A DNA stretch of 62,594 nucleotides, filler included, from Collodictyon triciliatum (taxonomy: Eukaryota): the NCBI GenBank assembly GCA_043381765.1. It is 2 parts of 2 records of this genome, joined end to end, with 100 filler letters (N's around TTAATTAATTAA, not from the genome) between each part and the next. Parts side by side here need not be neighbours in the genome. Positions count along the whole stretch, not along the records: positions 1 to 31,068 come from JBHJMP010000928.1; 1 more part is not named here. One strand, written 5' to 3'. The number at the start of each line of letters is the position of its first letter. The stretch's first letter is position 1. Both the position numbers and the translations under genes were made by a program. Below, piece by piece: positions 2,967-52,500 of the stretch. The notes beneath the pieces were generated by a model, which saw only the letters and a program-made list of their open reading frames with translations, made no database searches and was not told where the DNA came from.

Positions 2967-5326
2967 TCAGTCGAGGCAGGCGGCAAAGGACTCCTGAATC
3001 TCCTTGCGGTCGAGGTTTCGGCCGATGAATATCATCCGGTTTGTCTTCTCCATGTCGCCCCACTTGCGGCCTGGCTTCGAGTCAAAGAGCATGTGCACTC
3101 CCTAATGGCCAACAAGAGAAGGGAGAAGAAAATGAAACAATAGTGTCATCAAGCAATGTCCCAGCCATAGTTTGTTCAGCAGGTTTCTTATCTGTGTAAC
3201 ATTGAGATAACGAAGCAGTGTGCTGGTCTCTGTGGTGGATAGTAAATATTGTTGTGGGATTGCAACACTCGCCTGGAAGACAGTCATGTGGTCGTTGCCT
3301 TTGATGTTCAAGACGCCCTTCATGCGGAAGATGTCCTTTAATGTACGTATGACGTTTAGAGCCGGCCTTTCATTTTACTGCGGTGACCAAAGAACGATGT
3401 TGAAGAGTGAGTGAGTGAGTGAGTGTCTCCAGTGCTCACATTTCCTTTGGTCATCAGGATGGACCGAATCCACTTGTCTAGCTTTGTCTGGTCAACTGCG
3501 CCGGGCATGTGAACACCGACTGATGTGACAGAAAGGTCATGCTGGAAGCAGAAGAAGGCAAACAGTTATTATTTATGGGCATTTTTCATCGCCTCTTTCT
3601 TTTTCTTTCCTGTGAGCGATGGTTATGTTGGCGGTAGAAGTGATGAGAGATGTCTTGGGTGTCGATGGAACAGCATACTTGATGGTCTCCTTCCTCGAGG
3701 AATTGCGGGTCCATCTCGATGATTCTGGACAACTTGAAGGCACCAACCTCAAAGATGGCACTCAGGTCGATCTGTGCACATAATAATAAACCGGTGTGAA
3801 TATGAGAAACCGCATCCTGATTGAAGTGCAAGAGCGATAATTGAAATGCTCATAGCCGATTATGATGACTTCAGTCGTGGGAGACACTGACGCTTTTACT
3901 TTCCTTTCATATATATGATTACATGGGAAATGCCGGGTCTGATAGTGCCTATCGCATACACTTTACCTTGCAATAGGATGTGGTGAAGATGCTTGCTGCA
4001 GCGTTGATGATTCGGACGCGTGTCTTGATCGATTCTAGCTATGATGGTGAGTCACGTGTGAGTCTCATAGCTGCAGCTTATGGCATTAACGAGTTACGCT
4101 CAACTGTATCTAACCTCGGCTTCGGTGACCAAGTCCAGCTTATTGAGAAGAACTCTGTCTGCAAAAGCAATTTGTTCCAAGGCCTCATTCTCAACGCCCT
4201 GTTGTTTCTTTATGATAAGCAAAAGCACAGCTTCCACATATACATGAACGATACGCAAAACCCCAGCGATTCAGCCTCAACTCACCTCTTCCTTCTTCTC
4301 GTCCAGATGAAGCAGCAGGTGTTTGCAATCAACCACGGTGACGATAGCATCCAAATGGTACTGACTGTAAAGATAATTGGAGGGAAAATGAGCACAAGGT
4401 AGGAACACAACACAATACAACACAACACAACATAAAAAAGATATGTATTTGTATGTATATCTCTTCGAGCCTTGTTCAAAGCTGCTGAGATGGATAGATG
4501 ATATCTGTAATATATGTGCGTGCATATTTAGTAGGCCATACGAGCGAATCTCCGGGTCCATAAAGAACGTCTGCGCAACGGGGCCGGGGTCAGCAAGTCC
4601 CGTGGTTTCAATGAGGACATAGTCGAAGCGGTCGCGTCTTTTGGCCAGCGTCCCAAGTATGCGAATCAAGTCCCCGCGAACTGTGCAACAGATGCATCCG
4701 TTGTTCATTTCAAAGACCTGCAGAGTTATCAAAGTGTGATTCATCAGTCGGGATTTATCGTAAGGCTGAGTCGGGACAGACTCCCTTTCATAGTGATAGT
4801 GCTTCATTTATCCTTTTATCTTCATATTGCCTATCAGTGCTTGGAGATTCAAAGATACCTCCTCTTCGGCTGTGATAACCAGAGCATCGTCCACACCGAC
4901 CTAGAGATATATATATATATATATGAGGAAACTCGTTATTCAGGGCAAGTCGGGCATAGATTCTGTTCCTGAGTATCTTTGTGATTTCTCTGAATGAAAC
5001 CGTATGCATCAAGCAGATACGCTTATGCCTCGAGTCCCTACCTCACCAAACTCATTTTCTATGACAGCAATTTTCTTGCCATGCTTCTCGTGCAGAATGT
5101 AGTTCAAAAGCGTTGTCTTTCCAGCTCCAAGAAAGCCTGACAAGAGATTATGCTTAGAACACAAGATGAAGTCCATAGTGAAGAAGAAAGGCGTGTGCAG
5201 CGAACGATAAACAGATTCAAAGCAGCGGCGAACAAGCAGTCGTCTTTTTTCTTCATCCCTCCAGCGAGTCTTACCTGTGAGCACAGTGACAGGAATGCTG
5301 AAGCGGGCCGGTCCGGATTCTTCCAT
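2967..5326 (-). CDS. COG0523/CobW family (G3E P-loop GTPase) putative zinc/metal chaperone, 11 exons
   Basis: Spliced translation gives [18 protein letters not shown] (Walker A), [29 protein letters not shown] (CxCC metal motif), [14 protein letters not shown] (Walker B), LLNKLD (G4), and the CobW_C motifs [17 protein letters not shown] and MIFIGRNLD. Stop TGA at 2967-2969. Confidence 0.95.
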
Positions 5327-6093
5327 TGGAAACTTACAAAGCGCGGGATATCACTAATGCGCCAGATTGTACGAACGATGTTACTATGCTATGCCGCCTG
5401 CCTCACAAGCTGACTGGACGAATGACAGGTTTAACTGCATGCGAGTCCTCGCTGTGTTCCGACTTGCCGGACAGGCGAAGGTCTTGTGTGATTCATCACG
5501 TATCTGTGCTGCTTCTCGAGTCCAAGATATCATTTGCATGCAGTGTTCTGCACCTGAAGCATTATTCTTGCGCAGTGCAAGCTAGGATTTCGCCAGATAT
5601 GAGGCTGACTGAAAAGACTTTATACATCCCCACATGCACCTGGGTTGGAAGAGACTCCCGTGCGAATCGCAAGTGTGGGCAACTTCCCGAGCCTCTTGTG
5701 TCCGAGCCAAGCGGTATCGTCTTCTTCCCTCCGGAACATGCGAATTCCTTCTGCCCAGGGTGGGAAGCCACATGCAGCAGAAAGAAGGAACGCACAGGGA
5801 ATAGCAAAGACATCCGATATATAAAACAACGCACGCACTGGCTTCATCATCTTCCATCATATTAATAATAATCAGATTCTTTTGTTGGTAACCGATAATC
5901 CACTCATTCCTGCACAAGGCAGCTCCGTGTGTCTGTCACCAGCAACATACACGTTCAGTGTGATGCGGCGGCCTCCGCCAAAGACACAAAGCGAAGCTGT
6001 TGACTGTCGTTTTGCGCTATACTTGCTGTCTCATATGTATAATATGTGTATGCTTTCTAGTAAGCCGCCTGACGAAAGGAGACATCCCCAGAC
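5327..6093. promoter_or_regulatory. Putative bidirectional promoter/5' UTR region between the CobW and WD40 genes
   Basis: 767 bp lie between the divergent start codons at 5326 (-) and 6094 (+). No convincing coding sequence was seen. The function is inferred from geometry only. Confidence 0.55.
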
Positions 6094-6305
6094 ATGAAGA
6101 AAGCCGCTGCTTCGAAAGCGCCGAAGAGCCCGCCAGTTGAAGACGGCGAACAAGACAAGAGCCAGACATACGATGCCTCCAAAGTGCAGAGACAATGGAA
6201 GACGCAACTGCAGGACTCCATCGGGTTTCTCCACGCCAACCCAGTTTGCAACACGCTTACAATTCAACGCCTTTCTCTCACTCCCGCCTTTGTCTTTCTC
6301 ATTTT

Positions 6306-6346
<41 letters not shown>

Positions 6347-6879
6347 TTTCCCTCTCTTTTGCCAAGCGCCATGGCGAGTCTGTCAGCGCAACATTATTGT
6401 ATCTGCCTGGCCAATATGCTCCGTGGCTTTCAGGTTCATCCGGTCTTTCTGTCGGGTGACTCGTCTGGTGCGGTGACGCTGAGCTCGACGGCTTCAGGAA
6501 AGCGCATCTGGACAGACCCAAAGGCCCACAACTTTGGAGTCCACTTTGTGAATTGGGTGACGCCAGACTCGTTTGTTTCTTTCGGCTTGGATGCAAAGAT
6601 AAAAGTCTGGACTTACAACGTGGGTATCTGATGTACTTTCTTGTGCTGCTCTCTTTTCCTTCTTTCTCTGCGGAGACGTCAATAAGCACTCTTTAATGAG
6701 TCTTCCTCTCCTCTCCTTTTTGTGTTTTTTGGTTTGCCCTTCTCCTTCTGCATTTTTTCGAATCGCGAGTTGTCTTATTCATTACCCTCGTATTTTTACT
6801 TTTCTACTTCTTTATTCAGCATAATTACGAGGCTGCGGCTGCATCAGGTAAAAGACTGTTACCAGCAAATGCATCCGCT

Positions 6880-6922
<43 letters not shown>

Positions 6923-8764
6923 TCACAAACGAGTCCGTGCAAGTCAGTTACTTGAGCCTCAAACAGAAGCCTTTTTTTTTCCGGCAAAAAATGAAAAAAA
7001 TATATATAGACCGCTCTGAAGCCTGTGCGTTTGTCAAGAGTCCATCAGTAAAAGCCAGCTGGATTCTGGCAACCATCGTGTCACTTCCCGACAAGGTGAA
7101 AGAGACCTGGAACGTTCATTATGCAGTCGGAGTCGACAAGAAGATTGTCCTTTTCAACAAGGATTTTGAGGTTGTCAAGGAATCCCCGGCACTGCCGAGC
7201 ACAATCACAGGCACGTTCAGATAATTCCAGCTTGCCGTATACATCTACCTTTCATTTCAAGCGTTGAACAAGACATGCGAAATCGTGACACGAAGGCGGT
7301 TCAAGATTTATTGAATCACGACTTTATACCTTTTTTTTTCTTCTTTCTCGTCTTTCCCGTTTTCTTTGGTCTGCGCCCACAACTGCTTCAATGAAGGCCT
7401 TGTTTACAGCGACCCGCTGGTCTCATTGCTAGCCACAGCATATGGAAAGATAACGATGTTTACCTTTACTGAACTCTTCCTGGACGACCCAAGAGCATCT
7501 CTGATAAGGCAAAAGGAAAAAGAAATGCTCGTCATGAAAGGTGGGTGGTTATATGTAGTTAAAAAAAATGGGTTCGCTTGTGTTACAATTGAAAAGGGTT
7601 TCTCATTCATCAACACCATGCTTATCATATATAGGTTCTTTCATATCGCTCGGTCAAATGCCATCCTACCAGGTAGTTCTGGGAGGGATGCAGGACGACA
7701 TGGTCTTGGTCTTTGACTTGAAGAATGACAAGCAATACACCCTGAGCGGCTATCAAGGAAAGGTACTTCAAGTTTTTCTTTTTTGTTGATGTTGAAATCT
7801 ATCCATCGAAAATCGCTGTGTGCACATATCAAAGACGATGATGTAGAAGCCACAATAGCCTATTGGTGCCCCATCTCATTTCATGTCCGTGATACATTCC
7901 AGGTGGTCTCCATATCGGTGAGCAAGGACGAGGTCTTCATGGCTAGCGCGGGCGGACCTATTACGACTGTCTGGAGGCTTATTGATCTGATTGGAGGCAA
8001 AACACGCTCGCCAACGCAATATACACTCAGTGGTCACAGACATCTAATCGAAAAGGTTTGTTAGTCTCTTACATCATCGATTTATCATTTATGCAGCCCG
8101 CATAAGAAAAGAAAAAGGTTAGCGCTGAGAGTAACTTGTCCGAATGACGCCAGGGTTATGCATACCAAGAGTGCGAAATCCTGTGATGGTCTTTCGTATT
8201 GACAAAGTATTGCAATGATAATCAAACACGAAATATGCACGCAGGTCGAGTTCAACCCACACAAGAATGTTCTCTTATCGTATGGAAAGGACAGCATCGT
8301 GCTCTTCTGGAACTTTGTCGGCCGAGAGACAAACCCAAAGCCCGACTATGAACTTGACCCCGACTCCATTTACATGAGACCAGTACGTACACTCAAATGA
8401 TATGCACGCGTATGCTGAAGAGAACTATGAAAATAAGAATTATTGCAAACGGAAACAATAATCTCAGCCTTTCTCTTCTTGTTTCGGTGCCTTATACCAA
8501 TTAAAAACCTTCCAATCCCCTGCTTCAAATGATTCGCCCTCCTTTTCCTATATTCCGCACTCACGCTGCCATTTGCATCCATGATGATTGAATCAAAGCG
8601 CACTCACACAAAGGGCTTAATCACACGCGCAGGAAAAGGAAACGTTTGGCAAAAACACAAGCACCGGCATCGTGGGCGTGACAAGCTCCTGCTGGGCTGG
8701 TCCGGACGTGGCCATCATCGGCTATGAAGACGGACACATTGCCTGCCTCAAAGTGGATGTCTAG
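6094..8764 (+). CDS. WD40-repeat beta-propeller protein resembling the bacterial COG0523-associated WD40 family, 8 exons
   Basis: Approximate exons: 6094-6243, 6434-6623, 7010-7210, 7397-7540, 7635-7762, 7903-8056, 8244-8383, 8633-8764. WD motifs: FVSFGLDAKIKVW, LSGHRHLIEKVEFNP...LLSYGKDSIVLFW, IIGYEDGHIACL. Family-like motifs: PSTITGL, LLATAYGKI, MKGSFISL, GGMQD, LSGYQGKVVSIS, MASAGGPITTVW. Confidence 0.88.
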
Positions 8765-15200: not shown

Positions 15201-18200
15201 ATTTGTAAACGTCGTGTTAAATGGTGATTTGATACTACCAATCAAGGGTTGTACGAGGCGTCTGTCTTATGCGCAAATCCGTCTGCTCCTGACCAGCTTT
15301 TTGATATCCACCAAAGTCCCTTCTCTGCACTGCAAGTTCTCAGCGCTCCCACTTACCCGGAAAACTGCCAAGTAGGCTTTATTCATGCCTGCCCGTTTGT
15401 ACGCTCGCCATGCATCTGCACTAAACTGAATTGACTCTTCACTTGTCGACTAGATTCTAGATTTGGATTCAGAACCAATTGTAGTAGGGCAGCTGTCGTG
15501 CTTCACATTGCAGGCGAGGGTGAATCTTGATACCGGCAATACAATACCCCTGCCACACTAGAATGCATTGATATTATGTCCTTTATTACTTTCCAATCAA
15601 CTAACCTTAAATGGTATTTTTCGATGTTTGAAACGACATCGGTTCTTGCATGCAGGATGTATATCAAAATGACAGAGAAACCGGCGGTGACCAATTCGAT
15701 GGACGACTTGTTCACTCTAAAAGGCATTCCACCAAAAATAATTAAAAAAATTATATATTTTTAGAATTCAAAAGTTTGGACATTTGGGTGCAAAACCTCA
15801 TTATTAAGGATATGTTATTGCTAGTGGGGATGTCATTCAAATGAAAATCAAGGATAGCAATGACGGAAAGTACTTTTTCTACTACATGCCGACCATAAGT
15901 GGTTTGCATGCTCTTGAAGTAACGCTGGGTGAGTTTAATCCTGTTCTTTCTTTTGATTATTTAACATCATTCTGTATATTAAATTTGAAAAAGATTGCAA
16001 ACTCCGTATTCACTGATATTCCGTATTTCCATACCTCTTTCTTTTCTTGTCTTTATTTTGGTTTTTTTTTTACGTAACGAAAAATTATTTAGGTTCTCAA
16101 ACTATTGGGTCTGTTGGAAAACATTTGATGATCAAACAAGCTTTGACAAGCGCCCGCGATTGCAATGCATTTGGAGATGTAAGAGTTTGCGTTTTTTGGC
16201 GCGCCCTATTCAAACGTAGTGACCTCGCTTGTGCATTTCCACAGCACTAATTTCATTATATATCATTTTCTGCGTCTCTTATTCCACTTGATAAATGATA
16301 GGGTCTTAACGATAGTAAGGCCGGCCGCGAGGGTGCATTCACTATATCATCCAATGACCGATTTGGCAATGCACGTGGAGTTGGAGGAGGTGCTTAATAA
16401 ATGCATTCATTACTAAAGGATGGGAAAAATATGTGGTCGATTTTTTTGTTGCAAAAAAAAAAAAAGCATTGAGAGGTTATCCCAAAGAAATGAGAAAAAT
16501 AATCGTGAAATTGCATCGCCGAGAATAAGTTACATTTTTTAAAAACCTTTATGAAGATCATGTGAATATTTATCTTTTAAATAATTGCAGACAATTTCGA
16601 TGTTGTTTTAAATGGCCCGTCAACAGTACATGGCAACGTGATTGACAAGTAATAGTTATTATTCAACATAATTGGATTTTTTTTTTTTTTTGCCTTTCAC
16701 CTTTTCAACAGTGCAGTGTTTAATGTTTTTAAACTTTAAAAAATTCTGTTGTAAACTATTCGTTCATCCAGCAACGATGGAACCTACACAGCCTCCTATT
16801 GTTGTAAGAAAAGTGGAATGTATTCACTGTCAGTCACATTGAAGGGAGTCCACATAAATGGCAGTGTGTTTAACCTTCGAGTTTCACCAGGTAAGAAAAA
16901 AGAAGCGAGTGTTTTCTTTTAGAAAATCAGCAATAATAAATCCGAGCAATAAATGTATCCAATCGCCATATCCTTGGTTTTGTTTGTAGTCTTTATTTTC
17001 TCAGCTCATAATGAGATAAAAATTTAATAATTAAAAAACCCGTCATGAAGGCGAACCTTGCGCCGCAAATTGCTCAGTGTTTGGACCTGGTATTGGACGT
17101 GTAATGGCTGGACAGCTGGTTGTTTTTTATATCGAATCTTTTGACAGGTAAGCAAATAGCATGGAACCGACTATAATTCTCTGCTACTTAAGGTCTTTAT
17201 AAGGGCTATTATCGAGCTCAAAATACATCTGTTTCAGTATAAAAAAAAAAGTAATTTTTTTTAGTTTTATGAATCGAGTTCAAGACAAATCAGACTTTAC
17301 AATTTACTTGGTATGTTTTAAATTTTCTGTAAATGTGTTCGCCCAAATATATTTTTTATGCTTTATCTATGTATGTTATATACTCTTGAGTTTTTTGCAA
17401 TCCCTTAGGTCCAGAAAGTTTCCATTGATGCTTCCTCTGAAAATACAAGCCAAAGCTCTACAATCAAACATGCTGATGTAAGCAAACCGTTAAGTTCTCG
17501 TTGAAGAATTATTCAGTGGAATTTTTTCTTTTTCCTCTTTTATAAATGAGATAGATGGTGTTTGTAAACATATAACTAGTTGGAAGAAACACGCACTTTA
17601 CTGGACAACATACATTATTCTGGAGATGGGAAATATCTCATCTGCTTCACGGTACGTCTTTTTCTTCATAATTCTAAATAAAAAAAATTTTTTTTGGTTC
17701 GGTGCAGTTGCCTGATATTTATCCACCATGGTAGGCTTACAAGATGGGTCCCTACAACATCTACGTATATCACAAAGAAGAAGCTGTTCGCGGAAGCCCG
17801 TTTCATATCGAAGTTGACCCTAGTAGCCTTAATATACATTCGTCTCCCTTGGTTCCTGATTTTATGTGAAAAAAAATGAAAATCGCTTATCATAAAACTC
17901 GCTGCAATTTATTTACCTTTCTATCAATTAATATTATTTCGGAGGGTAATGTGAAAGTTTTTCTTTCTTCCCAGCATCTACTTTTGCCCGAAAATGCGTA
18001 ATCACATCCAGCACAAGAGAAAGGATCAACGTGGGAGAGCAAAGTATGCCATGCTTGATATTACCAATGTATCCCACAATGCACATAATGTCATTCATTT
18101 TAACTCTGGTCTCGCGTAATTCTATAAATAAATCAATTATAGACTCTTTGGTTATCCAGGCCAGAGATCAATATGGAAACAACCGCAAAATCGGGGGAGA

Positions 18201-18880
18201 TAAATTCGAAGTGAAACTTACTATGGTAAGGCGCCAGAGAACGCTATCTTTGGCAAAACATTATTTCATCAAACTTCTATGGTACCAGAAAGATTGCTTG
18301 ACCAAAGTATGTTCTCGTAGGATGCCAGCTCTGAAATATTTGTTCGTGCGGTGATGGTCGATAATGGAGACGGAACATATTATGCTTACTTTACACTGAC
18401 ACGCAGCGGGAGGTTCTGTTAACATATCACCTTATAAATTCAAGCAAATCAAAATTTTCTCATTTTCACGCTCAAGTTTTATTATGATATTTGTTGTAAG
18501 GAAAAACAAAATATCTATTAAAAAAACCTCTGTAGGTATTCCCTTGAAGTTAGTTTGGATGGCGAGCCAATTCAAGGTACTGCAGCTCGCCAATTGGAAG
18601 TTTGGAGTCAAACAACATCTCCAAGAGATTGCCTTGCTTATGGTAATGGATTACATGGTGCTGTGGCTGGAATCGAGTCGTCTTTCAATGTAAAACACAA
18701 TTATAATTTCAATCACATAATTGAGTATTTAATGCTCTTTGACTATATCGCCTAACTCATTGTCCATGCATTACATACCATTTTATTAAATCTAAATATA
18801 AGATTCAAGCTCGCGATCTATATGGGAATTACTGCTGCGAAGGAGGGGATAAATTTGATATAAAGCTAACGGGACCAGGT

Positions 18881-18923
<43 letters not shown>

Positions 18924-21900
18924 GTGTGTGTGTTTGTGTGTGTGAGTGTGTATTAAAAAAAAATATCGAACTAGACAACCTTGTTTCGCACCGTTGATTT
19001 CCTCATTTAATGTACACCCCAAATTTTATGCTACAGCTTCTGTCCGTGTAAATATGTTTGATCAAGGAGACGGCTCATATGTAGTCAATTACTGTGCCTT
19101 CAAGTGCGGAAACTATTTGCTCTCAGGTGGCGAGAACGGCATTTATTCAGTTTTCCGCCAGTTCACATTTCCATATGCCCTATGTATGTCTAACCTCTCT
19201 TCAATATCTGCTATTTTCGAACTGTAGTTATGCTCGAGGAGGAACATCTTGCTTTCAGTCCGTGTTCCTTCTCTGTAGTTGCCGGAGTAACGCATCCGGA
19301 TGCCTGTATCGTCCAAGGAGATGGTATTAAAGGTGGCAGGGCTGGTGAAACAAATGTTTTCACAATTTTTGCCAATGATGTATGCCAGAATCCAAGGGGA
19401 GTGGGAGGGTATATCTTTTTAGGAGGGTGTTGCACCCAGTCAATATGCTACCCTATACTATCTTTTTGGTTTTATTGTCCATGTTAATGTGAGGGTTGTG
19501 AAAAAGTAAAGGATGAGGTTTTAATATCGTTTCTGATTAGGGACAAGTTTTCTGTTCTCATAAAAAATGCAGAATTGATTTCCATCTCAACAGTCGAGAG
19601 CCAAACCACATTATTCGACAATGCCGATGGCTCATATACTGTTTCTTACAAACTGAACCAAGCTGGTTTGTCTAAGTTGATTCATTCGTGGTTTCATCTC
19701 ATGGCTTCGATGCAACTTAAGTTTATGCCTTCTCAAATGGACAGGTGCATATACTGTCTGGATTCTTCTAGATAACGCACACATCCAAGGTAGCCCGTTC
19801 ACGGACCTCCGCATAAAATCGTCATTCTCTTCCTCCGAGTTTTGTCGGGTTTCCCAAGTTCCAGATGGGTAATAATACATCGCTTGCTAGCAACAAGTGA
19901 CATAGCAATATTCAGCTTTATTTTTTGAATTAAGATTTTATTTGTCTGGATTCTTAGATGCGCCAGGGCCGGTGAAGCATCCACTCTTAGAATTGAGGCC
20001 TGCGATGCTTTCGGAAACAAGCAAGACCAAGGAGGAGATGAATTTGAGATAAAGTTTAACGGTATTCGTACTAGTGTTTGATACTCCCTTTCAAATACGG
20101 CATAAATACAATATCCCGATTCATATCTCACAGTTTAAACTTTTTTTTATTTTCCCTAAAGGCCCGTCCGAAGTGACTCATCTTCTCATTGACAACGGTG
20201 GTGGTGCCTATACTTGCATTTTCAATGCAACAAAGTCGGGCGTTTATGAAGCTCTTGTTTATCTTCATGGATATCGCATCCCGTCAAGGTGATATTTGTA
20301 AAAGTTTGAAATACAACGCACTATTCGAAGGCAATCTTAATAAGAAGGCGTGAGGATTGTTGATCGTAAATTGCTTGACCATGATATCATTCTGCTTAAA
20401 TACGTATACATGCACACTTAAGTTTATTTTAATTTATTTTTTTAATTATATCATAGTCCCTCAAGAATTAACATCGGCCCTGGCTCCATTTTTGCGTTTT
20501 CATGCTGCGCTGCTGGTGATGCGCTAACTAACTCTGTAGCTGGGACTACATCTCGCTTTATCGTTCAAGTAACATCGTCTTCCAATACAGATTGCTCATA
20601 TTTGCCCAATTGATGCAATTTGGTGAGAAACATTTCCAATTATTATTTTATTTATCTCCAGACCTTCGATCGCTATATGAATAAATGCACTCTGGGTGGA
20701 GAAGGTATAAAACAGAAGAAAGACTACTGAAGCACATCTTCCAATAAAACAGAAACGTATAACGTTCGGTTCGGTACATGAAAGAACGAGATAACTGAAT
20801 CACCACTATAATTGTAGTCCATAACTTTGAGGTTCTTCTACTGGGAAGCTCAGGGAGGCTTGTAGCGAATATCACTGACGAAAATAATGTAAGTTGTATG
20901 GGGAAAACTACGCTAACTTGATAGTGCAATTCTTGGCACAGAATATTTCCCAACATAATCTCATTTCTGTCCTTTCTACCAAAAATATTTTTGGTTTTTG
21001 TAGGGTTCATATCTAGTATCATACAAGCCTCGGAAGAGTGGAACATATAGTCTCAGCATCAAATACAAAGGAGGTCATATACAGGGCAGGTTTGCTATAC
21101 TGACGCATGCTTTAAGAAGATTCGATATTTTGTACTCTGCTCTCTTTTTTATATATAATATTACATACAATAAAGAAAAGTTTGAAGTTTACTTTTCAAC
21201 AAAATACTTAATACTATGAAATACACACTAAAAATGAATAGCCCTTTTCGCACAAAAATCAACATCGCGCCAACTTCTGCGGCAGAGTCCACCATAACAA
21301 ATGATTTTCTGGACAAGGTTACGAATTAGATTAAAAAAAGTCTCCTAGAATATCTATCAATTTAGTGTCTATGGCATGTGTTTAATTGATATATTGATAT
21401 ATTCGCACCAAAAGTCTCAACTTCAATCTATAGTGCCAAGCAGGAACTGAATCATCCTTTGTTATTCAAGCACGCGATGAGAACGGAAACGAGAGAAATG
21501 AAGGAGGAGACTTGTTTGATGTGATTTTATGCGAATTAGTTGATAATATCACAGGTTCGATTACCAGCAAAAAAAAAAAAAAAANNNNNNNNNNNNNNNN
21601 NNNNNNNNNNNNNNNNNNNNNNNNNNNNNNNNNNNNNNNNNNNNNNNNNNNNNNNNNNNNNNNNNNNNNNNNNNNNNNNNNNNNNNNNNNNNNNNNNNNN
21701 NNNNNNNNNNNNNNNNNNNNNNNNNNNNNNNNNNNNNNNNNNNNNNNNNNNNNNNNNNNNNNNNNNNNNNNNNNNNNNNNNNNNNNNNNNNNNNNNNNNN
21801 NNNNNNNNNNNNNNNNNNNNNNNNNNNNNNNNNNNNNNNNNNNNNNNNNNNNNNNNNNNNNNNNNNNNNNNNNNNNNNNNNNNNNNNNNNNNNNNNNNNN

Positions 21901-24900: not shown

Positions 24901-27900
24901 TATTTCTGAAATAATAACCGAGGTAAATTTTGAGTTTTAAAATGCTTGTATTCGTTCGATAAAATTATCAACCAGATCGGAAAAGGAATATTCGAGAGTC
25001 AATGAGTTGATTTTTCCGGCCAGGTTCAAGACAATCACGATGGAACCTACAGCTGCTTCTACATGATTAATGAAACAGGGGATTATGATATTCATGTACG
25101 TAGCACTGATGAAACGCAGCTGCAAGGAAGTCCTTTTCTTGTAAACGTAAAGCCCGGTACTATTTTAATGAATTAACTAATATTTAGCGGTACCTAGAGA
25201 AAAGGATATGTTTCGGCTGGTTAGCACCTTCATCCTAAGAAAAAAATAGATTTTATTTCAGGATGCTTTTTTTTACATAATGATTTTTGATTTAGGACCT
25301 CCATATGCAGATTTTTTTTCTGCTCAAGGGCGCGGATTGACGACAGGAACATGTGGAAATCCTTCGTATTTTTACGTAACTTTAAGAGACAGGTTCGGGA
25401 ATCTCATTCCTGGAGATGATTCAAGGTTGGAGATAACCGGGACACATGAGAAAGACTCCTCTAAAGTACTCAAACTATTTGACTTTCGTGACGAATTGAA
25501 CAACTCACTGATCTCATTCTGAATACAAGCACCATTATTTATTTTTTACTTTTCTTTCCCTATAAAACTGCTCCTAATTGCTCGATTTTCTTCCTTATCC
25601 TAAAAAAGGTCAGCAACTTGAATCTTAGAAGGACTATTGATGTATCGGGTAGAATCAGAGTATCCTACACCCCAATCAAATTCGGACGTCACAATATTTA
25701 CCGTACGCATCTTATTAATCATTCTGTGGTTAGTTCAAGTTATTTATTTGTCCTATTTTTAATGGCCGAAACAGCGTCAACTTACCTCTCATAGACATTT
25801 AAAAAACCATTCAGTTTCTTACGATGGTGCTCCTTTGAAATTTTCTCCAGCGACCTGTGTAGTTGAATCTGGTTTGATATGCGATAAAAATTCCCAATCA
25901 ATTTTTTCAAAGTCATTCCATATTAATTTATTTGTGTATAAACTAAATTTACGGATCAAGGCTCATTTTTGTCTATGTTTCAAATGAAGATGACCCATCA
26001 GAGGAGCATAGCAAATTCTTTACTGAAAAGTGCATGTATGCTGCTGGTGAAAATGTACCGGTACATGTACATATGAAAGACAAATATGGAAACCCATGCC
26101 AAAGTATTCAGTATGATTTCAAGGTTGCTTTAAGAGATAGAAATGGTAGGTGATTTATGTGGAATTGAATTTCTTGAAGGGTAAATTTTTCATTAAATTT
26201 TTCAAGCTGTTTTGGCAATCATGCTAATAATCAACACAAACTTTAACAAGAGGACATCAAATATTCGTCAAATAAACGTGACTATGGATTCGAAGTTGTA
26301 TTTGTCCTTGAAAAGGCGGGCTCATTTGAAGTTGGGATATATTTAAAGAGAACTTCATCACTGGATGAGGTATTTCGATTATTCCTCTGCTGGGATGCAA
26401 TCTAAATATAATATAGAAAAAATCAAGTAAATTCATTTCTTGCTTACTTGTTAATATGCAAATATTGGAAATGTTATCGCTTCAGACTTGGAAACTACTG
26501 AACGGAACATTCCTACACATCCAAATTCAACCTGACCATATATGTCCATCGAAAACATTCGCGCGTGGAGAAGGCCTGGTATGCTTAATTAATTGTTTTT
26601 TGACAGGCGGATTTATGGGTTAGGTTATTATTTATTGTATTTTGTAATTTCATTATGAATCATAAGAAAATAGTTAAAAAAATTAATAAGATAATTAAAT
26701 TTGCAAGATTCGTGCCGTTGCGGGTGCCGAGTCGAATTTTACTGTTGTAGCATCTGATAAGTACGGAAATCGATGCTGCAACGGGATTTCATTCATCAGT
26801 GTTAAGTTGGAAGGACGGGGTTCTCGAATACCAGTAAGACATTGGTTTTGTGCAAAACTACTGATGAAAAGAAAATAGCATTATTATATTCTGTGGCATT
26901 ACAAGAAATGCCCTGAAACTTCAACACCATCTTGTTTTGATTGGCGAATAGGTCACTTTGTTGGACAATGAAGATGGCTCATTCACAGCTAGCTTTCATG
27001 CGATACATGCCATGGAATATGAATTGAGCATTCTTTCCGAGGGAATACACATCCATGGGAGTCCATATCGACTAAATGTTGAGCCTGGTATTATAACTTT
27101 TAAAAAATTATTACGAAGCAACCTAATTCCTATATATGTTGTAAAATTACTCAAAAAAAAGGGCATTTTGCATAATTTTCTATGTTAACTGAACTCAAAA
27201 AAAAAAAGCATCAACAGCACCTATGAGATGCATCTGCCTTGTACCTGAAAGGTTTATAGCAGGGATAGTGGCTAAAGTTACCATAGCCGCAAAGGATAAG
27301 TTTGGGAATGCAAAACGAAGCGGAGGAGATATTTTTCGAGTGGATGTTTATTCAGATAGATCTAAGAGCATTCATCCATCACGGAGTCGTAATTTTAGCT
27401 CGAATGAAGAAACTTTTTCTATTCACCGTACCACAAGCAGCGATTCTTCGTCGTCCTACTCTTCTGAAAGTGCCGTTGCCCAAGAGAATTACATCCACCA
27501 AAGCTTCGGTCAGAGAATATATCGACTGCCCAGTTCTGATGTCAAGACAAACACTCTGTGGTCCTCCAATCGAGTTCACACTAGCACCTCTGAAATATTC
27601 TTGCATACAGATGCAAACGAAAAAGCCTCCAAACCGCAACGGCATTCTTTGAATCTCCAGAGTGGAGTTTTTTCCTCCTCTTTGAGTCATTCCCCCAATC
27701 TAGAATCCAACGCCCCAATGTTACCGACAGGTGATGATTCATTTGTTCACATGAGGCCCGATGTGGTTGATAATGGTGACGGAACCTACGATGTGGCCCT
27801 GGCTCTTGAAAAAAGTGGCATCTACCGAGTATCAATAGCTTCTTTCGAAGAGCATATTTTTGGGAGCCCATTGTACATCAGCTGTATTCCAGGTAACGAA

Positions 27901-30900
27901 GCACACCAATCATAAAACTTTTACACATATTTGGGTCAAAACCTCCATAGCCAAACTGAATGAAATATTTACAAAAAGAAAAATGATACGCATGCAAGCT
28001 GTTTGAACCAATTTTATTTCAATATCAATATGGTGCCATTAGATGTGCCTTACTCACAAAATTGCTTTGCGTTGGGCTCTGGGCTGGTTGCATCTACGGC
28101 TGGTTAGGCTTTATTGTCGCCCTCAATACCAACACATTGTTAATCCTATTGCTTTTTTATTTTATGATAGGGGATAGCATTTGTTTCAACATCGTCCTTC
28201 GCGATAAGTTTAATAACCCTACGTGGTTTATTTCCCAGTCGCCCAGGGTTAAATTCACCCGGTAAAATATAAACCACACATAACATAAAGGTTGCATTAA
28301 TTCCCCTTCCCTTTTTACAGCCTCTGTTTGCGATATTAATCTACAGGATTGGTCTCGACGCACATGATGAACTAGAAGTATTTTCCTCCGACATTGGAAA
28401 CGGAACTTATGCAGTCAATATAACGTGCACAAGAACGTCTGATTGTTTTAATTAATCTAAATGATTAGAATTGTCAGATTTAAGATTTCAGAAAACAATC
28501 CCTCGATTGAATAATACTCATGTCTCAACCCAACAGAGGGACATATACTATGGATGTTCTTGTTAACGAAGAACCAATTCGTGGGAGTCCGTTCAGTACA
28601 CGTATTTTTCCATCCAAGACCAGTGCAGCGCACAGTGTCGCTGAAGGTAAGTCAAATGCATATTGGAGATACATTTCGTTAGATGGTTTGAGTGTTTAGT
28701 TTTTTATTTATAGGGGAAGGACTTGAGTATGCGTCATGCGGAGTGACTTCCTCCTTTCTAATTATCGCAAAGGATGGATATGGAAATGACCGTTCTGTTG
28801 GAGGTGATGATGTTGAGGTCTTATTGGAATGTAAAGAATCAGCATTCAAGGTCTTATATGGGGAGAAAATCAGTCAAAATTGAACTAAAAACATATTCTC
28901 TAGACTTTAAAATTTAGACACTTATTTTCTTCTTTGCTAAACTTTATGTAAACTAAAGAGTGATCTATCACACTTCTTGCAGGCGAGGGTGAAAGACTTA
29001 CAAGATGGCTCATATGAAGTGGGATTTACGCCTGTCAAAAGCGGTGAACATACTATCAAAATTTTAGTGAACAACACCTTTATGCGGGTAATGGGATATA
29101 AAAGAGAGACTTTGCAATTATACATTCAACTTTTTTTTCTATTTCTCAGCTAAATCAATCATTTCACCAAATAGAAAGCGAATCAGCTAATATAATTGAA
29201 AATTTTGTAAAAAGGTTGCTAACCATCATAAAGTGTTTGTATCCCCTGACAAAATTCATCCTGGGTCGTGCATAATTCGGTTTTTAAAAAAATACATTAC
29301 GATCATTTATAGTGCGATATAAAAATCGCGTGTATTTTTTTTTTTAATCCTGGGTTAAAATTTTCCTCAGAAACGTAAACGAAAGATTCCTGGTTGGTGT
29401 GCCACAAAAATTCGAAATCATTCCGAAAGACCGATATTTTAATACACAACCAGCATCAGGTTTTTTGGTGGTTCAACTATAAATATTTTCGTCCATATTT
29501 GATTGATTAAATAAAAAAAATTATGAATAATCGACTTATTTAAACAAAAAACTTTTTCTATTTGAATCATAAATTAGTTCAACTTTTCAAAGTATCTGTA
29601 TGCCATACTCTCGCAAAAGAATTGGTTGTACTTGCCTCGCTTATCCTTTCAGAGGATGAATCTATCCTTGCTCTTTTTAATGTATCTGTTGCTGGAGTCT
29701 ATACCGTGGTGGCAACCTTTGATGATATACCTCTCCCTCTGTCCCCAATTCACATTTTTGCCTCCCCATCCTCTGTTTCGGCGGCCAACTGCAAATTCAT
29801 GTACCATGATTGTTGAATATTTCATATGTCACGAACAATATTATATCTTGCCGATTCCAACTTATCGTCGGTTTACCAAGAAAGATAGTCAGATGTTTTC
29901 ATCATTATTACATGCTGCAGGTGTCAACAAAAATGTGCTGTTCTTGGAAAGGAGAAAAGGTCTGTCTCTTTCTTCCTTTTATATGCATTTATGTATATGG
30001 TTTACTCTAATGCACACTTCTTTCTTAGGATTTATGTCCAAGCATGTGATGAATATGACAACATTATAACAACCGGCGGAGAAAATGAGTTTTCCTATTT
30101 AGTTTCTCGCCCAAATTTGACCACTCTTTGGTAAATGGTTTTATATGCAAAAATTTTTTGCAGTTCTAGGTGACTAAGAAATCAAAAATATTTATAAACT
30201 GTAACTTTCGTTTTGTAGGCAAAAATCTAGACTTCTGGATGAAATGGATGGGTCATATTCCTTGATATTCACTCCCGATGAATGTGGAGCTCATTATGTC
30301 GAGGTCAGTTATAAAGATTATCCAATCGACGGAAGTCCTTTTACGATAGATGTTGAAATAGGTAGTTTTTATATCCAATTTACGAATCAATTGTTTTTTA
30401 GACCTGAATTTAATTCGATATATTTGATGTGTATTTGAGCCATCGAGATGCATCTGAACTAATATATGGTATGTATTCGCCACCAGGCAAAACAAGTCCC
30501 TCCAAAACCCATGCCTATGGACTTGGTTTGAATCAGGCTGTGGCTGGTATACCCTCGGTATTCACACTGGAAACTAAAGACCAACTCGGACACTCAAGAA
30601 ACACAGGGGGAGATGAAGTGTTTGTTCAATTTGAATACGAGGTAACATTTGGCAAACAAAAAAAATTTTTAACCTTTTTTATCCCCAACGCATACTGAAC
30701 CCTGTGATAGAGGGTCGAAGTCTATCGACAGCTGCTACTTTGAATAACTTTCTCTGTTTAATCTCGCAAAATAGGCATCTTGGAAGGTTCTAGACGAAGG
30801 AAATGGATTTTATTGTGTTACTTATACCAGTTACGATGTTGGAAGGCAGTCCATCCGAGTTTCGGTTAATGGAGAGGACATTCCAGGGAGTCCATTCACA

Positions 30901-46793: not shown

Positions 46794-48480
46794 ATGCCAA
46801 AGTCACCAGAAGGCTCATCGCAGACCGTTGCCCATGAAGAAGGACGGCCAGGTCCTAGCCCTTGGTTCATATCTCTGGATGCAGGGCGAGTCATGCAGTC
46901 CCAGTCAGCACCGTTAATCAGTAAATTACAATTCCTTTGGAAAAACTTGTTGTTTCTAATATACCAAGGAAGGTACTTATTTGCTTCTTATCTTCACAGA
47001 TACGATGATTTCTGGTGCATTTGCCGGGTAACATAACACTCAATTTATTTTACAAATGCTATGACTTTTTTCAATTCATCTTGCTGATTGCTCAATAAAT
47101 TAAAATGTCTCTTTTCTCTTTCTTTTTCATAAAAATTTTAATTTTTTTCTTCTAATTTACTCCTCCTATCTCTCAAACCACTACAGTGGACTAGCTGATA
47201 CTGTGATGCATCCGTTTGATACGGTGAAAACTCGCCTACAGGCGCAAGTCAGGGCTCCATTTTTATATAGTGGAATGCTACATGCATTTAAAACAATTGT
47301 CCAAAAAGAGGGGATCCGAGGATTATATGGAGGTGCATATCATCATTCTGCATTTAACAATTTCACCACAAATTATTAGTTCCAAATGAAGCGTTTGACA
47401 TGTTCATGCGAAATATCAGTAGCTGGATATACCTAAATGGTTACAACATGATATATCGAATCGATGTTGATGATATTGGTATATACAGGTCTTGGTGCCA
47501 CTATGTACTCTGCTATCCCATCTACTGCCGTTTATTTTGTGGTGTACGAACGAACCAAATCATTCCTACTTTCTAATGTGCGACCTGAGTTTCACTCCTT
47601 GGTCTATTTCCTCTCTGGGGCCTCTGGCGAGGCCGTTGCTTCACTTATATCAGTACCATTAGAGGTTTTCTTCTGGATATATAACTTACTTTTTTTTCTT
47701 CTCTGGGGAGGGGGCATTGCTGTGTTGTAAATACGAACCGGTTTTTTTCTACACACTCATATGTATTAGTCTAAAATACATCTCGTCCAATAGATAATGA
47801 ATCAAAAATTTATTTTAATCTAAATAGGTCATAAAACAGAGGATGCAGCTTAAGGGACTACAATCAGACAACCCAGCATATGCATCCAAATACAAACATA
47901 CAATACACGCTCTCCTATCAATTTTACGAAAGGTATTCCCTTCGCAACGCAATCATACCCTCCTATCCTCTCCAACAATCCACTTCTTTTTTTCTTTTCT
48001 CTTGGGAATCTTTTTCATACTTCTCATTCTGACTTGCCACTCCAATAGGACGGGATTCGAGGCATCTATATCGGATACGGTGCTACCATCATGCGTGACG
48101 TGCCATTCAGTGCCGTCCAGTTCGCTGTATATGAGCAAATCAACCGGGTTATGCAATGGAGGCGTGGTTCGGGGCGGCCGTCGCAGCCATCAACACCAGA
48201 GGCAATATTCATGGGAGGGATAGCCGGAGGTATTGCAGCCGCATGCACCGCACCCTTAGACTTGGTCAAAACACGCTTACAAATCCAGGGCGAGGCATTT
48301 GGAGTTCCCCAGTACACAGGAATCAGACATGCTTTTGTAAGCATAGCAAAGCAGGAGGGATTTCGTGGGCTTTGGAAAGGGATAGCTCCCCGTGTTGTTT
48401 GGGTGGCTCCTCAAAGCGCACTGATGTTTTCGGGCTATGAGTTTATGAAATCTGTTTTTGCTTTGCGGCTGTCTCAATAA
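46794..48480 (+). CDS. Mitochondrial carrier (SLC25) protein; substrate uncertain (Mme1/SAM-carrier-like)
   Basis: Three carrier signatures PxD/ExxKxRxQ: MHPFDTVKTRLQ, VPLEVIKQRMQ, APLDLVKTRLQ. Also EGIRGLYGG, RDVPFSAVQFAVYE and EGFRGLWKG. The start codon is tentative. Confidence 0.92.
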
Positions 48481-49567: not shown

Positions 49568-52500
49568 TTATGAATCATCATTCTTTGGCTGACTATCGTT
49601 GTTGAGCGCAAGTAAAGGGGGAGTAGATATGCACTCCAATAGTTGGTGGTGAAAATGAAGAACAAAAGCCTGAAACTTGGAGGCGGAGGAGTGAGTGGGA
49701 AAAAAATATCGGAAAAGGCGCTCCTAGATACCTTATATATTTTCTGCGTCTGCACGGAGTGTGATTACAACACCACGCTTAATCCTGTGGTTAGGGACAA
49801 AGGAAAAGGATGGTTCATATCAAAAGTACATCACGTAAATCAAAAAAATTGAGGATGATTCGAACAATAGAGGAAAATTGTATATAAATAGTCATGCAGG
49901 GTTATCCCCAGATGATGGAAGAAAAAATATGAAAAAAATGAAGAAAAAAAAAGAGAGTAGAGAAAGTAGAAAAAGGGTGAGATAGAGGAAATCCAACCAG
50001 TGTTTCTCAGGTTGGTCCGCAGGGAGTTGTATCGAACGAAGGAAGTTAGCAAAGCGATTTCCATCAGAATTCGGCTCGGACTCTGGGATGCCCTGGTCTT
50101 CAAACATCGGGTCCATTCTGTTCGTTACTCGCAAGACTGGGCAGTGATAGGACGGAGATGGTGGTTTGTAATCGTTTTTCAACACCGGTTTGAACCATAT
50201 CTATCAGTGTCAAGGACTTTCTCAAAGTTTATAGACAAGGATGACTTGTTCTAAGCATATCTGATAAAACATAGAGGTACTGTTCGGTATATTATAGTTG
50301 TTTAACTAAATGAAAATTAAATAAAATAAATAAGTAAATGATTTTCTTTCTTTTCTGTAGAGGATACAACAGGCATTTGCGTATGTCGGCTTTGTGAAAA
50401 CACAGTTGCCTCAGTCAACAAATTACTCGGGTCCCACGAGGCTCCACGCACATTAAGACCACTGTGTATAGTAATATATTTTAAAACAAAAGACAAAAGA
50501 CAAAAGACAAAAGACAAAAGACAAAAGACAAAAGACAAAAGACAAAAGACAAAAGACAAAAGACAAAAGACAAAAGACAAAAGACAATGACAATAATTCG
50601 TACCGCCCGTAAAATCCTGTATGTGGCGGATGGGGTGGCTCTTCGGGAAGGAACAGTTGGTCATAGGTCAGTTGGTCTACCGAAAATCCGTTGCGACTGG
50701 CATAATCCTTCAAATAATCTATTGGATGTATAACTTTTCTGTTAAAAATGTGGCTTCAAAAATTCACTTAAGTTAATAAATGATTACAGATAATAATCGC
50801 CTCGGGTCTTGTGAAAGCACTAAGCCAAAAGACAATTGGCGTTCCTCTACTGAGCCACTCTTGGAAAAAGGAGACATATGACTTCAAGTCAGTCAGGAAA
50901 CCACGGAGAGATTGGTTGTATCTAATGTTGAGAGCTCCCCACGACTAAGAAAATTATAGATGAAATCAATAGCCAGGTATGGAATTGGTGAATATGTATT
51001 CCCTTCATTGGGGTTTCTCTAGCGCGCCATATGCTTTGAGTGTAAAATAAGTGAACACATTCTTAGGATATAAGTGAATATGTGTGTATTGATATCATGT
51101 GTTTTAGACAAATTACCAAAGGTACACGGTCTTCCAGACATTTTGCCACAACATCCTGTGTATCAAAGGAAAAGACACTGGGGCATGAAAGGGAGGTTTT
51201 GATGATGCCAATAGAATGGGTGATTAAGTGAATGAGCTTGTTGATGCGGTCACACTCTTGTGAGAGAATATTTCTATGAGGCCCTTGCACGACTTTGGGT
51301 TCAGCTTCAAGAAGATTGATAGGCTTCGGGATGTACTGCTCGATGTCTGAAAAAAAATGAAAGAAAAAAAAAAGGAGGTGAGGAGCTACAGTAACAGTAA
51401 CAATAACAATAACAATAACAATAACAATAACAATAACAATAACAATAACAATAACAATAACAATAACAATAACAATAACAATAACAATAACAATAACAAC
51501 AATAATAGCAATAATAGCAATAATAGCAATAATAGCAATAATAGCAATAATAGCAATAATAGCAATAATAGCAATAATAGCAATAATAGCAATAATAGCA
51601 ATAATAGCAATAATAGCAATAATAACAATAATAACAATAGCAGCAAAACAATAATAATAACAATAGCAGCAAAACAATAACAATAATAAACAAAAAAATC
51701 ATGAGATTTACCAAGCAAGAGCTGTGACAGTTGACTTTGAATCGATACAGACTTCATTAAATGCAGTGGTGGTTTAATGTCAAACATGGTTTTGAGGAAA
51801 GCGTCAAAGCGGGAGGAAAAGTATCTAAACATAATATAATTTTGTAAGATTTTCTCGTGTGCAGTGGCATATTTAATGTAGATATTGCCGTTATCAACTT
51901 AATTGAATGTACAAACCTTTCGCCAGTCTGGCGTGCTCCTTCGTTTAACCCCAGGGCATCCATCTTATCCACGATTGGGAAGGAATCAATGTGCGTGCTG
52001 AAAAGAAGGGAATGTTTGTAAAGAATTTCCGATATTATGTCCTATCTTCTTCACACAAACAAATATAAATATAAACATAGATATGAAACAATAAAATTTG
52101 AGAAAATCAATAAATCAAAAACAATATAAATAAAAAAAAAATACCGAATAGACGCGACAGGGCCATCTCCTGGTGGGTGATAAGAAGTTGAGCCAAAGAA
52201 AGTGTACTTATCTTCCATGAGTTGGGGATTCATAAACTCCTGTAGAAGCGACTTAAGTAGTCTTTTGTCCCATCGATTCAAAACTCTGCCACCATAGATA
52301 ATCTACAATATGAGTTTAAGGTAAATAGGGTGATCCATTCAATGCTTACATATTCATGTTGAGGGATTCACTCGTACATTTCAATCAATAATGATAATTC
52401 GCTTACCTCGGCAATAAGAAATTGAAGTGTGCTATATGGGATATCTCCATGTTCGTTGAGGTACTCTCGGAGTTGTGTGATTGCAAGCTGACAAACAAAT

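Follow-up and report, generated by a model that had tools for sequence, protein, structure and literature searches.

Does a two-gene operon module of bacteria – a COG0523 GTPase gene and the WD40-repeat gene that accompanies it – survive as a linked pair in a eukaryote? The question is raised by a locus of Collodictyon triciliatum, contained in a stretch of 62,594 nucleotides (the window), in which a COG0523 gene and a WD40 gene lie head to head. The linkage of the two families in bacteria is already known (2009); what we describe here is the same pair, head to head and rich in introns, in a eukaryote. Our literature searches, in keeping with the original prediction, found no description of a eukaryotic COG0523-WD40 pair.

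Both genes are present on the strands predicted for them, and their start codons (5326 and 6094) are indeed 767 bp apart (Table 1). The spliced COG0523 coding sequence, 993 nt in the 11 exons first proposed, is open, and its introns comprise nine of the GT-AG type and one GC-AG. For the WD40 gene there are three in-frame models: one of eight exons (400 aa), one of nine in which the additional exon is a micro-exon of 28 nt (419 aa), and a third whose intron 4 begins at a GT donor (416 aa). Against a profile of the bacterial partner family they score 140.9, 136.2 and 125.5 bits, respectively. The profile favours the GC-donor joint of intron 4 and, slightly, the eight-exon model; the eight exons first counted are thus plausible, as one model of three. 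The GT-donor model was rejected, being 11 bits lower and breaking the spacing of the family motif. All eight WD40 peptide strings listed in the original prediction occur in the spliced product, in the order given. An ankyrin-like ORF is the neighbour, in the first 2 kb of the window, and Rfam matched nothing in the window. Notwithstanding the runs of N in the window, an artefact – contamination by bacterial DNA, a chimera in the assembly or two pseudogenes – is highly improbable, given that both genes are cut by many spliceosomal-type GT/GC-AG introns and have frames that open only once spliced, that the GC content of 2-10 kb (0.44-0.47) resembles values elsewhere in the window (0.485 in the first 2 kb, 0.44-0.48 at 40-42 kb and 56-58 kb), and that the alignment of the COG0523 product to bacterial proteins runs from end to end with no frame breaks.

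Table 1. Features of the COG0523-WD40 locus; positions are counted along the window.
Feature	Position	Strand	Remarks
COG0523 (G3E P-loop GTPase) gene	2967..5326	-	11 exons, 330 aa; open spliced frame
COG0523 exons 1-6	5326-5275, 5136-5042, 4900-4859, 4717-4542, 4364-4286, 4198-4115	-	
COG0523 exons 7-11	4038-3967, 3771-3679, 3541-3440, 3335-3273, 3101-2967	-	GC donor after 3335-3273; last exon with stop
Stretch separating the start codons	5327..6093		767 bp; candidate bidirectional promoter
WD40 gene	6094..8764	+	8 or 9 exons; 400-419 aa; open spliced frames
WD40 nine-exon model, exons 1-5	6094-6243, 6434-6619, 6820-6847, 7010-7210, 7397-7540	+	GC donor after 7010-7210
WD40 nine-exon model, exons 6-9	7635-7762, 7903-8055, 8245-8382, 8633-8764	+	last exon with stop; 419 aa
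WD40 eight-exon alternative	without 6820-6847; following exon from 7039	+	400 aa
WD40 exons 6 and 7 (nine-exon numbering)	7637..8055	+	most family-specific motifs (G.QD, GY..KV, A..GG...T.VW) in the alignment to 48 bacterial partners

Evidence for the nature of the GTPase came from domains, motifs and overall similarity. Pfam recognises cobW (PF02492) on exons 2, 4 and 6 (44.6, 65.0 and 22.1 bits; cut-off 20.7) and CobW_C (PF07683) on exon 11 (37.9 bits; cut-off 22), with exon 10 under the cut-off at 18.6 bits. The spliced product holds a single match to the Walker A pattern GxxGxGK[ST][ST] and a single CxCC metal-binding motif (CICC). Over about 320 aa – its full length – it shares 62-67% identity with Actinomycetota proteins and 55-59.5% with short cyanobacterial forms; the best bacterial match quoted, from locus L024 (66.9% over 320 columns), shows no notable gaps across any exon joint, and the 120 best proteins listed carry bacterial names or no name. 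The window GTPase is a COG0523 protein, probably of the ZNG cluster (Haas subfamily 5).

According to the available text of Haas et al. 2009 (PMC2770081), prokaryotic members of this subfamily are found in clusters with znuABC, creatinase genes and genes for WD40-repeat proteins. The WD40 gene downstream of the COG0523 gene receives one passing sentence there, and curated models specific for the partner family number 0 in Pfam and 0 in NCBIfam. The adjacency claimed for bacteria, in print since that paper, is plain in the 80 bacterial loci (3843 ORFs) closest to the window COG0523. A phmmer search of these ORFs with the spliced WD40 protein returned 50 matches at E<=1e-3, 47 of which lie on the same strand at -255 to +89 nt from the end of a COG0523 ORF; with the family profile, a partner is found in 66 of the 80 loci and sits directly downstream on the same strand in 62, often overlapping the GTPase gene that it follows. 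The linkage spans 14 bacterial phylum labels. As in the clusters described for subfamily 5, the same two families adjoin in a context of zinc uptake and Fur-family regulators: among the 66 partner-bearing loci, an ABC ATPase occurs in 21, ZnuA in 19, an ABC-3 permease in 15 and a Fur-family gene in 12. Bacterial partners are far more divergent than the GTPases: at COG0523 identities of 55-65%, the WD40 identity has a median of about 26%. The window pair, at medians of 58% (COG0523) and 19.6% (WD40) to bacteria, lies at the low end of the bacterial range.

The argument turns on whether the window WD40 protein belongs to this family, or whether the two genes are merely chance neighbours – an ordinary, fast-evolving eukaryotic WD40 gene, with generic repeat likeness only, that came to lie beside a COG0523 gene by accident. 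Scores alone are compatible with an accident. Against the family profile, for which there is no curated threshold, the window protein gains 134-141 bits, compared with 241-363 for held-out members and 297-467 for training members; it thus scores less than half of true partners, is far more divergent than they are, and is equalled or exceeded by generic controls (up to 168 bits). In phmmer, too, generic multi-repeat WD40 proteins outscore the linked partner (82 versus 63.5 bits), and with a second family profile (alignment A2) solved eukaryotic WD40 proteins reach 125-250 bits. A raw score is no proof of membership, since generic WD40 proteins do equally well. Moreover, no single WD40 exon matches a Pfam family at E<0.05, and the protein is therefore very divergent.

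The order of matches along the protein tells a different story. Each protein was cut into independent 44-aa pieces and each piece was scored alone against the family profile: all 12 window pieces reach their cognate blades in profile order (rho 1.00), at scores per piece that are low (6-23 bits). Held-out true partners gave rho 1.00 in four of five cases, whereas none of ten generic WD40 controls, drawn from the same genomes, kept the order (rho -0.20 to 0.56). Single exons likewise map in order – exon 6 to profile positions 191-230 (18.3 bits), exon 7 to 233-274 (7.0 bits) and exon 9 to 321-344 – and the protein aligns over positions 8-307. Motifs that are specific to the family and foreign to the general WD40 consensus stay in register, and of the columns conserved among 48 bacterial partners the window protein has the identical residue in 30 of 66 (>=70% conserved) and 12 of 18 (>=90% conserved). 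Two histidines common in the bacterial consensus, one before the PST motif and one after the QD motif, are absent from the window protein, and several conserved positions differ; the bacterial motifs cited in the original prediction resemble the consensus of the 48 partners without matching it letter for letter. Since its pieces are collinear and those of generic controls are not, we assign the window WD40 protein, by sequence, to the bacterial COG0523-linked family as a divergent member, which agrees with the kinship first claimed and with the adjacency of 47 of the 50 phmmer matches to COG0523. That a family-matched WD40 gene should lie by accident beside a COG0523 gene of its own bacterial partner subfamily would be surprising, and we regard chance as improbable.

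Nor did searches for eukaryotic relatives supply another family. None was found with exon 4 in a set of 5.8 billion proteins, in which matches to longer proteins were admitted, with exon 7 against genome contigs or with exon 2 against metagenome contigs. An exhaustive search of 1.84 billion representatives with exon 2 gave 14 matches; the seven picked by length (247-453 aa) are all generic, matching the family profile in short, repeated or out-of-order stretches only. All ten atlas clusters of look-alikes of a bacterial partner are bacterial. A standard eukaryotic WD40 family – the explanation that the original prediction had set against its own – accounts for the protein neither in Pfam, nor among solved structures compared with its exons, nor in the exon-2 search. 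A mitochondrial-carrier exon reached at most 43% identity among the proteins listed, and that collection thus holds no close relative of the organism.

Probably, in our estimation, the locus represents the two-gene operon module of bacteria in a eukaryotic copy with introns, most likely transferred as one piece. Both genes are intact; Walker A and CxCC are preserved in the GTPase, and the WD40 protein fits the family of bacterial partners blade by blade. An unlikely, though not negligible, alternative grants the module and gives it another history: the pair may be old in eukaryotes (by vertical or endosymbiotic descent) and kept by selection, or the genes may have arrived separately and been joined afterwards. 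Such a history would suit the high intron density (10 introns per 993 nt of COG0523, 7-8 per about 1.2 kb of WD40), the orientation, which is unlike that of an operon, and the long window branch in both trees (1.16 for COG0523, 2.83 for WD40). The identity of the window to bacteria in the alignment (50-65%) resembles that between bacterial phyla, and hence there is no sign of recent arrival; furthermore, subfamily 5 is said, in the available text of PMC2770081, to hold most eukaryotic COG0523 proteins. Against this history, the COG0523 tree, which contains no eukaryotic reference, groups the window protein with three Actinomycetota rows (SH-aLRT 100), the window GTPase lacks both the N-terminal motif of ZNG1 and the His-rich loop of the two Arabidopsis ZNG2 proteins, and the exon-based searches gave the WD40 protein no eukaryotic relative. 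In the WD40 tree the window protein falls near Actinomycetota only under a long-branch warning, and without L056 it shifts to a Melainabacteria row (support 64); because its place within the family is unstable, congruence of the two trees is neither shown nor rejected.

If a single piece of bacterial DNA brought the pair into the eukaryotic lineage, as seems most likely, then one gene would have been inverted after entry and both would have gained introns. Bacterial clusters are tandem on one strand, whereas the window genes are divergent, and at least one inversion must therefore be assumed. In the proposed module the GTPase would be a GTP-dependent metallochaperone for zinc, like the COG0523 proteins that have been characterised, and the WD40 protein may provide it with a protein-binding platform, as client adaptor or as regulator of the GTPase cycle. 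The head-to-head layout may allow one intergenic region to drive both genes; the 767-bp stretch holds no inverted repeats, one 11-nt pair of direct repeats, and no match to two Zn-responsive elements of plants and yeast. The fullest version of this account – a whole zinc-metallochaperone operon that crossed to a eukaryote, stayed linked and was rebuilt, intron-rich, around one bidirectional promoter – we advance tentatively, with rather more doubt than conviction. Of the metal-delivery module originally envisaged, the specific relationship of the WD40 protein to COG0523-linked bacterial WD40s stands, while binding, co-regulation and co-acquisition stay proposals.

What gives the pair its interest is that few COG0523 metallochaperones have known clients or partners, ZNG1 with METAP1 being the one well-established eukaryotic case in the available text of PMC11672702; for the COG0523-linked WD40 protein the literature found reports no function. 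That the linkage holds across 14 bacterial phylum labels, and persists in a eukaryote, for which an operon brings no advantage, argues that the proteins need each other and suggests that they work together. Were the operon-transfer reading true, COG0523 proteins of the ZNG cluster would have in the WD40 protein an obligate partner, serving as client adaptor or as GTPase regulator, and of a class absent from the present ZNG1-METAP1 picture. The pair is a rare case of prokaryotic genes kept together in a eukaryote, and offers a concrete hypothesis testable in tractable bacteria.

Comparison with known systems sharpens these points. ZNG1, the eukaryotic COG0523 zinc metallochaperone whose client is METAP1 (PMC11672702, PMC10642216, as far as their available text goes), is defined by an N-terminal CPxLxP-type motif (CPxLxP / PxLVp) that docks on the METAP1 zinc finger (PMC11672702). 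It has in common with the window GTPase the COG0523 fold, Walker A and CxCC and, by the literature, the broad ZNG cluster or subfamily 5. The window protein, however, has about 10 residues before its first strand (exon 1 encodes 17 in total), and no ZNG1-type motif (P.L.P or P.L[VI]) occurs in any minus-strand frame of 5275-7000, although an exon farther upstream may have been missed. The term WD40 has 0 occurrences in the available text of PMC11672702 and PMC10642216. ZNG2, a plastid COG0523 protein of green algae, land plants and some red algae, also has CxCC, is tied to zinc deficiency and is described as having no known client; it carries a plastid-targeting extension and, in the two Arabidopsis proteins for which this is described, a His-rich loop between the domains (PMC10642216, available text). 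The window protein lacks an N-terminal extension, and its interdomain linker has 3 His in 31 residues. E. coli YjiA, which has the same fold, is the only COG0523 protein that the profile of alignment A1 matched among those of solved structure; its NCBIfam family, PRK11537, ranks first for the bacterial relatives, which fall under that family's cut-off (266 versus 361 bits), and no WD40 neighbour of YjiA appears in the literature found.

Among propellers, the nearest comparison is AztD, a periplasmic or cell-surface beta-propeller zinc chaperone that passes zinc to a solute-binding protein and is often encoded near CobW-family genes (PMC6689063, available text). AztD was rejected as the identity of the partner: although both are propellers tied to zinc handling, the COG0523-linked protein is a canonical cytoplasmic-type WD40 (PF00400) whose propeller, in the model, begins at about residue 10, with no room for a signal peptide. 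The predicted structure of the bacterial partner from L024 has a pLDDT of 95.2 and 31 strands. Its best fold matches are to solved proteins that we take to be eight-bladed (TMq 0.85-0.87), ahead of presumed seven-bladed ones (0.67-0.69), and the partner family is probably, on this model, a beta-propeller of about 340 aa with eight blades.

Both genes of the pair are intact. The window is eukaryotic in style, its frames opening only once short GT/GC-AG introns are removed, and the spliced models confirm the predicted arrangement: a COG0523 GTPase gene and a WD40 gene lying head to head, with 767 bp between their start codons. The eleven exons proposed for the COG0523 gene stand, since the CDS is open and, when the product is aligned to bacterial proteins, there are no notable gaps at any exon joint. 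The structure of the WD40 gene is less sharply defined: the eight-exon model of the original prediction is in frame, and a nine-exon model (whose exon numbers we use here) and a GT-donor variant are equally so. All eight peptide strings quoted for this gene are present, in the same order, in the spliced product. In the homology-preferred models each gene contains one GC-AG intron, the remaining introns all being GT-AG. A long poly-T run was noted in WD40 intron 1, and a (TTTA)n microsatellite past the 28-nt micro-exon.

Features of the gene pair and of the rest of the window
Feature	Position	Strand	Structure	Product
COG0523 gene	5326-2967	minus	11 exons, 993-nt CDS	330 aa
GC-AG intron of COG0523 (intron 10)	3273-3335 / 3101	minus
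WD40-like gene	6094-8764	plus	three in-frame models
WD40 model 1			8 exons	400 aa
WD40 model 2			9 exons, including 28-nt micro-exon	419 aa
WD40 model 3			GT-donor variant of intron 4	416 aa
GC-AG intron of WD40 (intron 4)	7210-7397	plus
Poly-T run	6310-6346
(TTTA)n microsatellite	6880-6925
Ankyrin-like ORFs	143-2603	minus
ORF pieces with GGD.F.V repeat	17950-18354, 21434-21560, 27193-27915	plus
Mitochondrial carrier exon	48049-48477	plus
Trinucleotide repeats	51063-51898	minus
N runs (assembly gaps)	~21.58-21.97 kb, 53.16-53.65 kb

The catalytic and metal-binding motifs of the GTPase are conserved – Walker A and CxCC each occur once in the spliced product – and, with exons searched singly, Pfam cobW is matched by exons 2, 4 and 6, and CobW_C by exons 10 and 11. 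With exon 4 as query we retrieved the best 80 bacterial loci (74–88% identity over 58 aa). Full-length identity is 66.9% to an Actinomycetota MAG protein (locus L024), 65.3% and 62.2% to the proteins of loci L048 and L056, and 55–59.5% to short cyanobacterial forms. The bacterial relatives all fall short of the NCBIfam thresholds set for YjiA-type GTPase, CobW and ZigA; YjiA is the sole relative with a solved structure.

The locally spliced WD40 was searched by tblastn and phmmer against the 3843 ORFs of these 80 loci. Fifty ORFs matched at E<=1e-3, and 47 of them lie on the same strand as a COG0523 ORF, -255 to +89 nt from its end. By a family profile built from 48 such ORFs (partner called at >=200 bits), the partner is present in 66 of the 80 loci, these 66 carrying 14 phylum labels, and directly downstream of COG0523 in 62 of the 80. 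Seven of the 14 partnerless loci are incomplete or hold a fragment only (L026, L031, L050, L052, L059, L060, L067); in the remaining seven, plenty of sequence follows COG0523 (L069, L070, L072, L077, L078, L079, L080). The cyanobacterial contig L060 has a C-terminal partner fragment (2-391, plus; 101 bits) upstream of its COG0523 ORF (364-1416, plus), the reverse of the usual bacterial order. In a metagenomic protein of 209 aa (P0002), an N-terminal COG0523 half runs straight into partner-like sequence, with precomputed Pfam matches to cobW and beta-propeller families; this may reflect a true fusion, a deletion, or an error of gene calling where the two genes overlap.

The bacterial linkage, given as background in the original prediction, is already in print: according to Haas et al. 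2009 (PMC2770081), subfamily-5 COG0523 genes of prokaryotes occur in clusters with WD40-repeat and creatinase genes and with znuABC, and the subfamily includes most eukaryotic COG0523 proteins. Our counts of the genes lying up to 4 kb from the pair in the 66 loci (Pfam on one representative per cluster) agree with that clustering: an ABC ATPase in 21, ZnuA in 19, an ABC-3 permease in 15, and a Fur-family regulator and a second COG0523 in 12 each. The second COG0523 is a more distant paralogue, for example L039:194-1489 (minus). In bacteria the pair thus forms a tight operon in a zinc context.

The bacterial partners are canonical WD40 proteins (PF00400), for which no specific Pfam or NCBIfam family was found. 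The AlphaFold model of the L024 partner (pLDDT 95.2, 31 strands) has as its top fold matches ODA16, Rsa4/Notchless and TBL1XR1 (TMq 0.85–0.87), which we take to be eight-bladed, as against 0.67–0.69 for G-beta, RACK1 and WDR61 (presumably seven-bladed) and a seven-bladed designer protein. Because the fit is better to the former group, we read the partner, on the strength of this model, as an eight-bladed propeller.

Similarity scores alone are no evidence for family membership here. In one of the bacterial genomes, generic multi-repeat WD40s outscore the linked partner against the window WD40 (82 vs 63.5 bits); the family profile gives the window WD40 134 bits, true partners 241–467 and generic controls up to 168; and a second profile, from an alignment of the bacterial partner family (A2), gives solved eukaryotic WD40s such as WDR5 or CIAO1 ~125 bits. 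Since scores fail to discriminate, we devised a test of blade-specific collinearity in which 44-aa pieces, at a step of 22, were each scored separately against the family profile. The proposed collinear match to the COG0523-linked family was seen: the window WD40 gave 12 pieces that scored, every one of which fell in profile order (rho 1.00), as did those of four of five held-out true partners (rho 1.00; L058, 0.52), whereas pieces of ten generic WD40 controls were scattered across blades (rho -0.20 to 0.56). Exons scored one by one were also in profile order. Aligned together with the bacterial partners, the window WD40 has the same residue at 30 of the 66 columns conserved at >=70% in bacteria and at 12 of the 18 conserved at >=90%, and its identities with bacterial partners include motifs outside the general WD40 consensus. 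Ordered pieces, ordered exons and kept family motifs together lead us to conclude, from sequence, that the window WD40, though divergent, is related to this one bacterial partner family in particular. The control could have overturned the central claim of homology, and the claim stood.

A standard eukaryotic WD40 family, an alternative that would tell against this reading, was looked for with exon-sized queries and none was found. No single exon fell below E 0.05 for any Pfam family. Among solved structures exon 2 matched AIP1 (2.8e-6) and exon 6 a designer repeat protein, exon 4 found no WD40 protein, exon 7 gave one chance-level match to a ribosomal protein, and there were no other WD40 matches. 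Exon 2, searched exhaustively against 1.84 billion representatives, returned 14 weak matches; the seven of moderate length (247–453 aa) fit no more than short parts of the family profile, and these parts were repeated or out of order. The window WD40 thus appears, by these exon-sized queries, which are weak, not to be a standard eukaryotic WD40, although a distant eukaryotic family may exist.

In a tree of 66 bacterial COG0523 proteins and the window (references all bacterial), the window protein groups with three rows of Actinomycetota (SH-aLRT 100), its own branch being long (1.16). The same three rows lie nearest to it in the WD40 tree, with a long-branch warning; without L056 it stands beside a Melainabacteria row (support 64), and given this shifting place the trees decide congruence neither way. 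Bacterial partners have diverged far faster than their GTPases, and the window pair falls at the lower edge of what bacterial pairs show for COG0523 versus WD40 identity, a position compatible with shared descent. Its identity to bacteria is about that between bacterial phyla, so arrival cannot be dated from it.

As to function and history, we infer that the GTPase would be a zinc metallochaperone, the WD40 protein its docking platform or regulator, and the 767-bp stretch a shared promoter; the pair would come from a bacterial operon, with an inversion and intron gain afterwards. Within the intergenic stretch we found neither an inverted repeat nor a match to two zinc-responsive elements of plants and yeast.

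The GTPase lacks features described for two eukaryotic COG0523 families, ZNG1 and ZNG2. An N-terminal CPxLxP-type motif, absent from bacterial homologues, defines ZNG1 (PMC11672702), whereas none is present in the window COG0523 gene or upstream of it as far as position 7000. Arabidopsis ZNG2 proteins are described in PMC10642216 as plastid-localised, with long His stretches between two domains; the window protein has neither targeting extension nor His-rich loop. The term WD40 occurs in neither of these two papers. While the bacterial linkage is known, we found no description of a eukaryotic COG0523–WD40 pair, in this divergent, intron-bearing form, in the literature searched.

Elsewhere in the window, the 3′-side neighbour of the COG0523 gene consists of large ORFs that, translated, resemble ankyrin repeats with a tail rich in Ser and Pro behind them. 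Several ORF pieces sharing a GGD.F.V repeat, filamin-type Ig-like in look, are probably exons of one large gene. The long trinucleotide repeats would read, depending on frame, as poly-Leu, Ile-Ala or Cys-Tyr runs. The relatives of the mitochondrial carrier exon carry PF00153; among the matches listed, identity reaches no more than 43%, to plant and fungal proteins, which indicates that, as far as those matches go, the collection searched contains no close relative of the organism.
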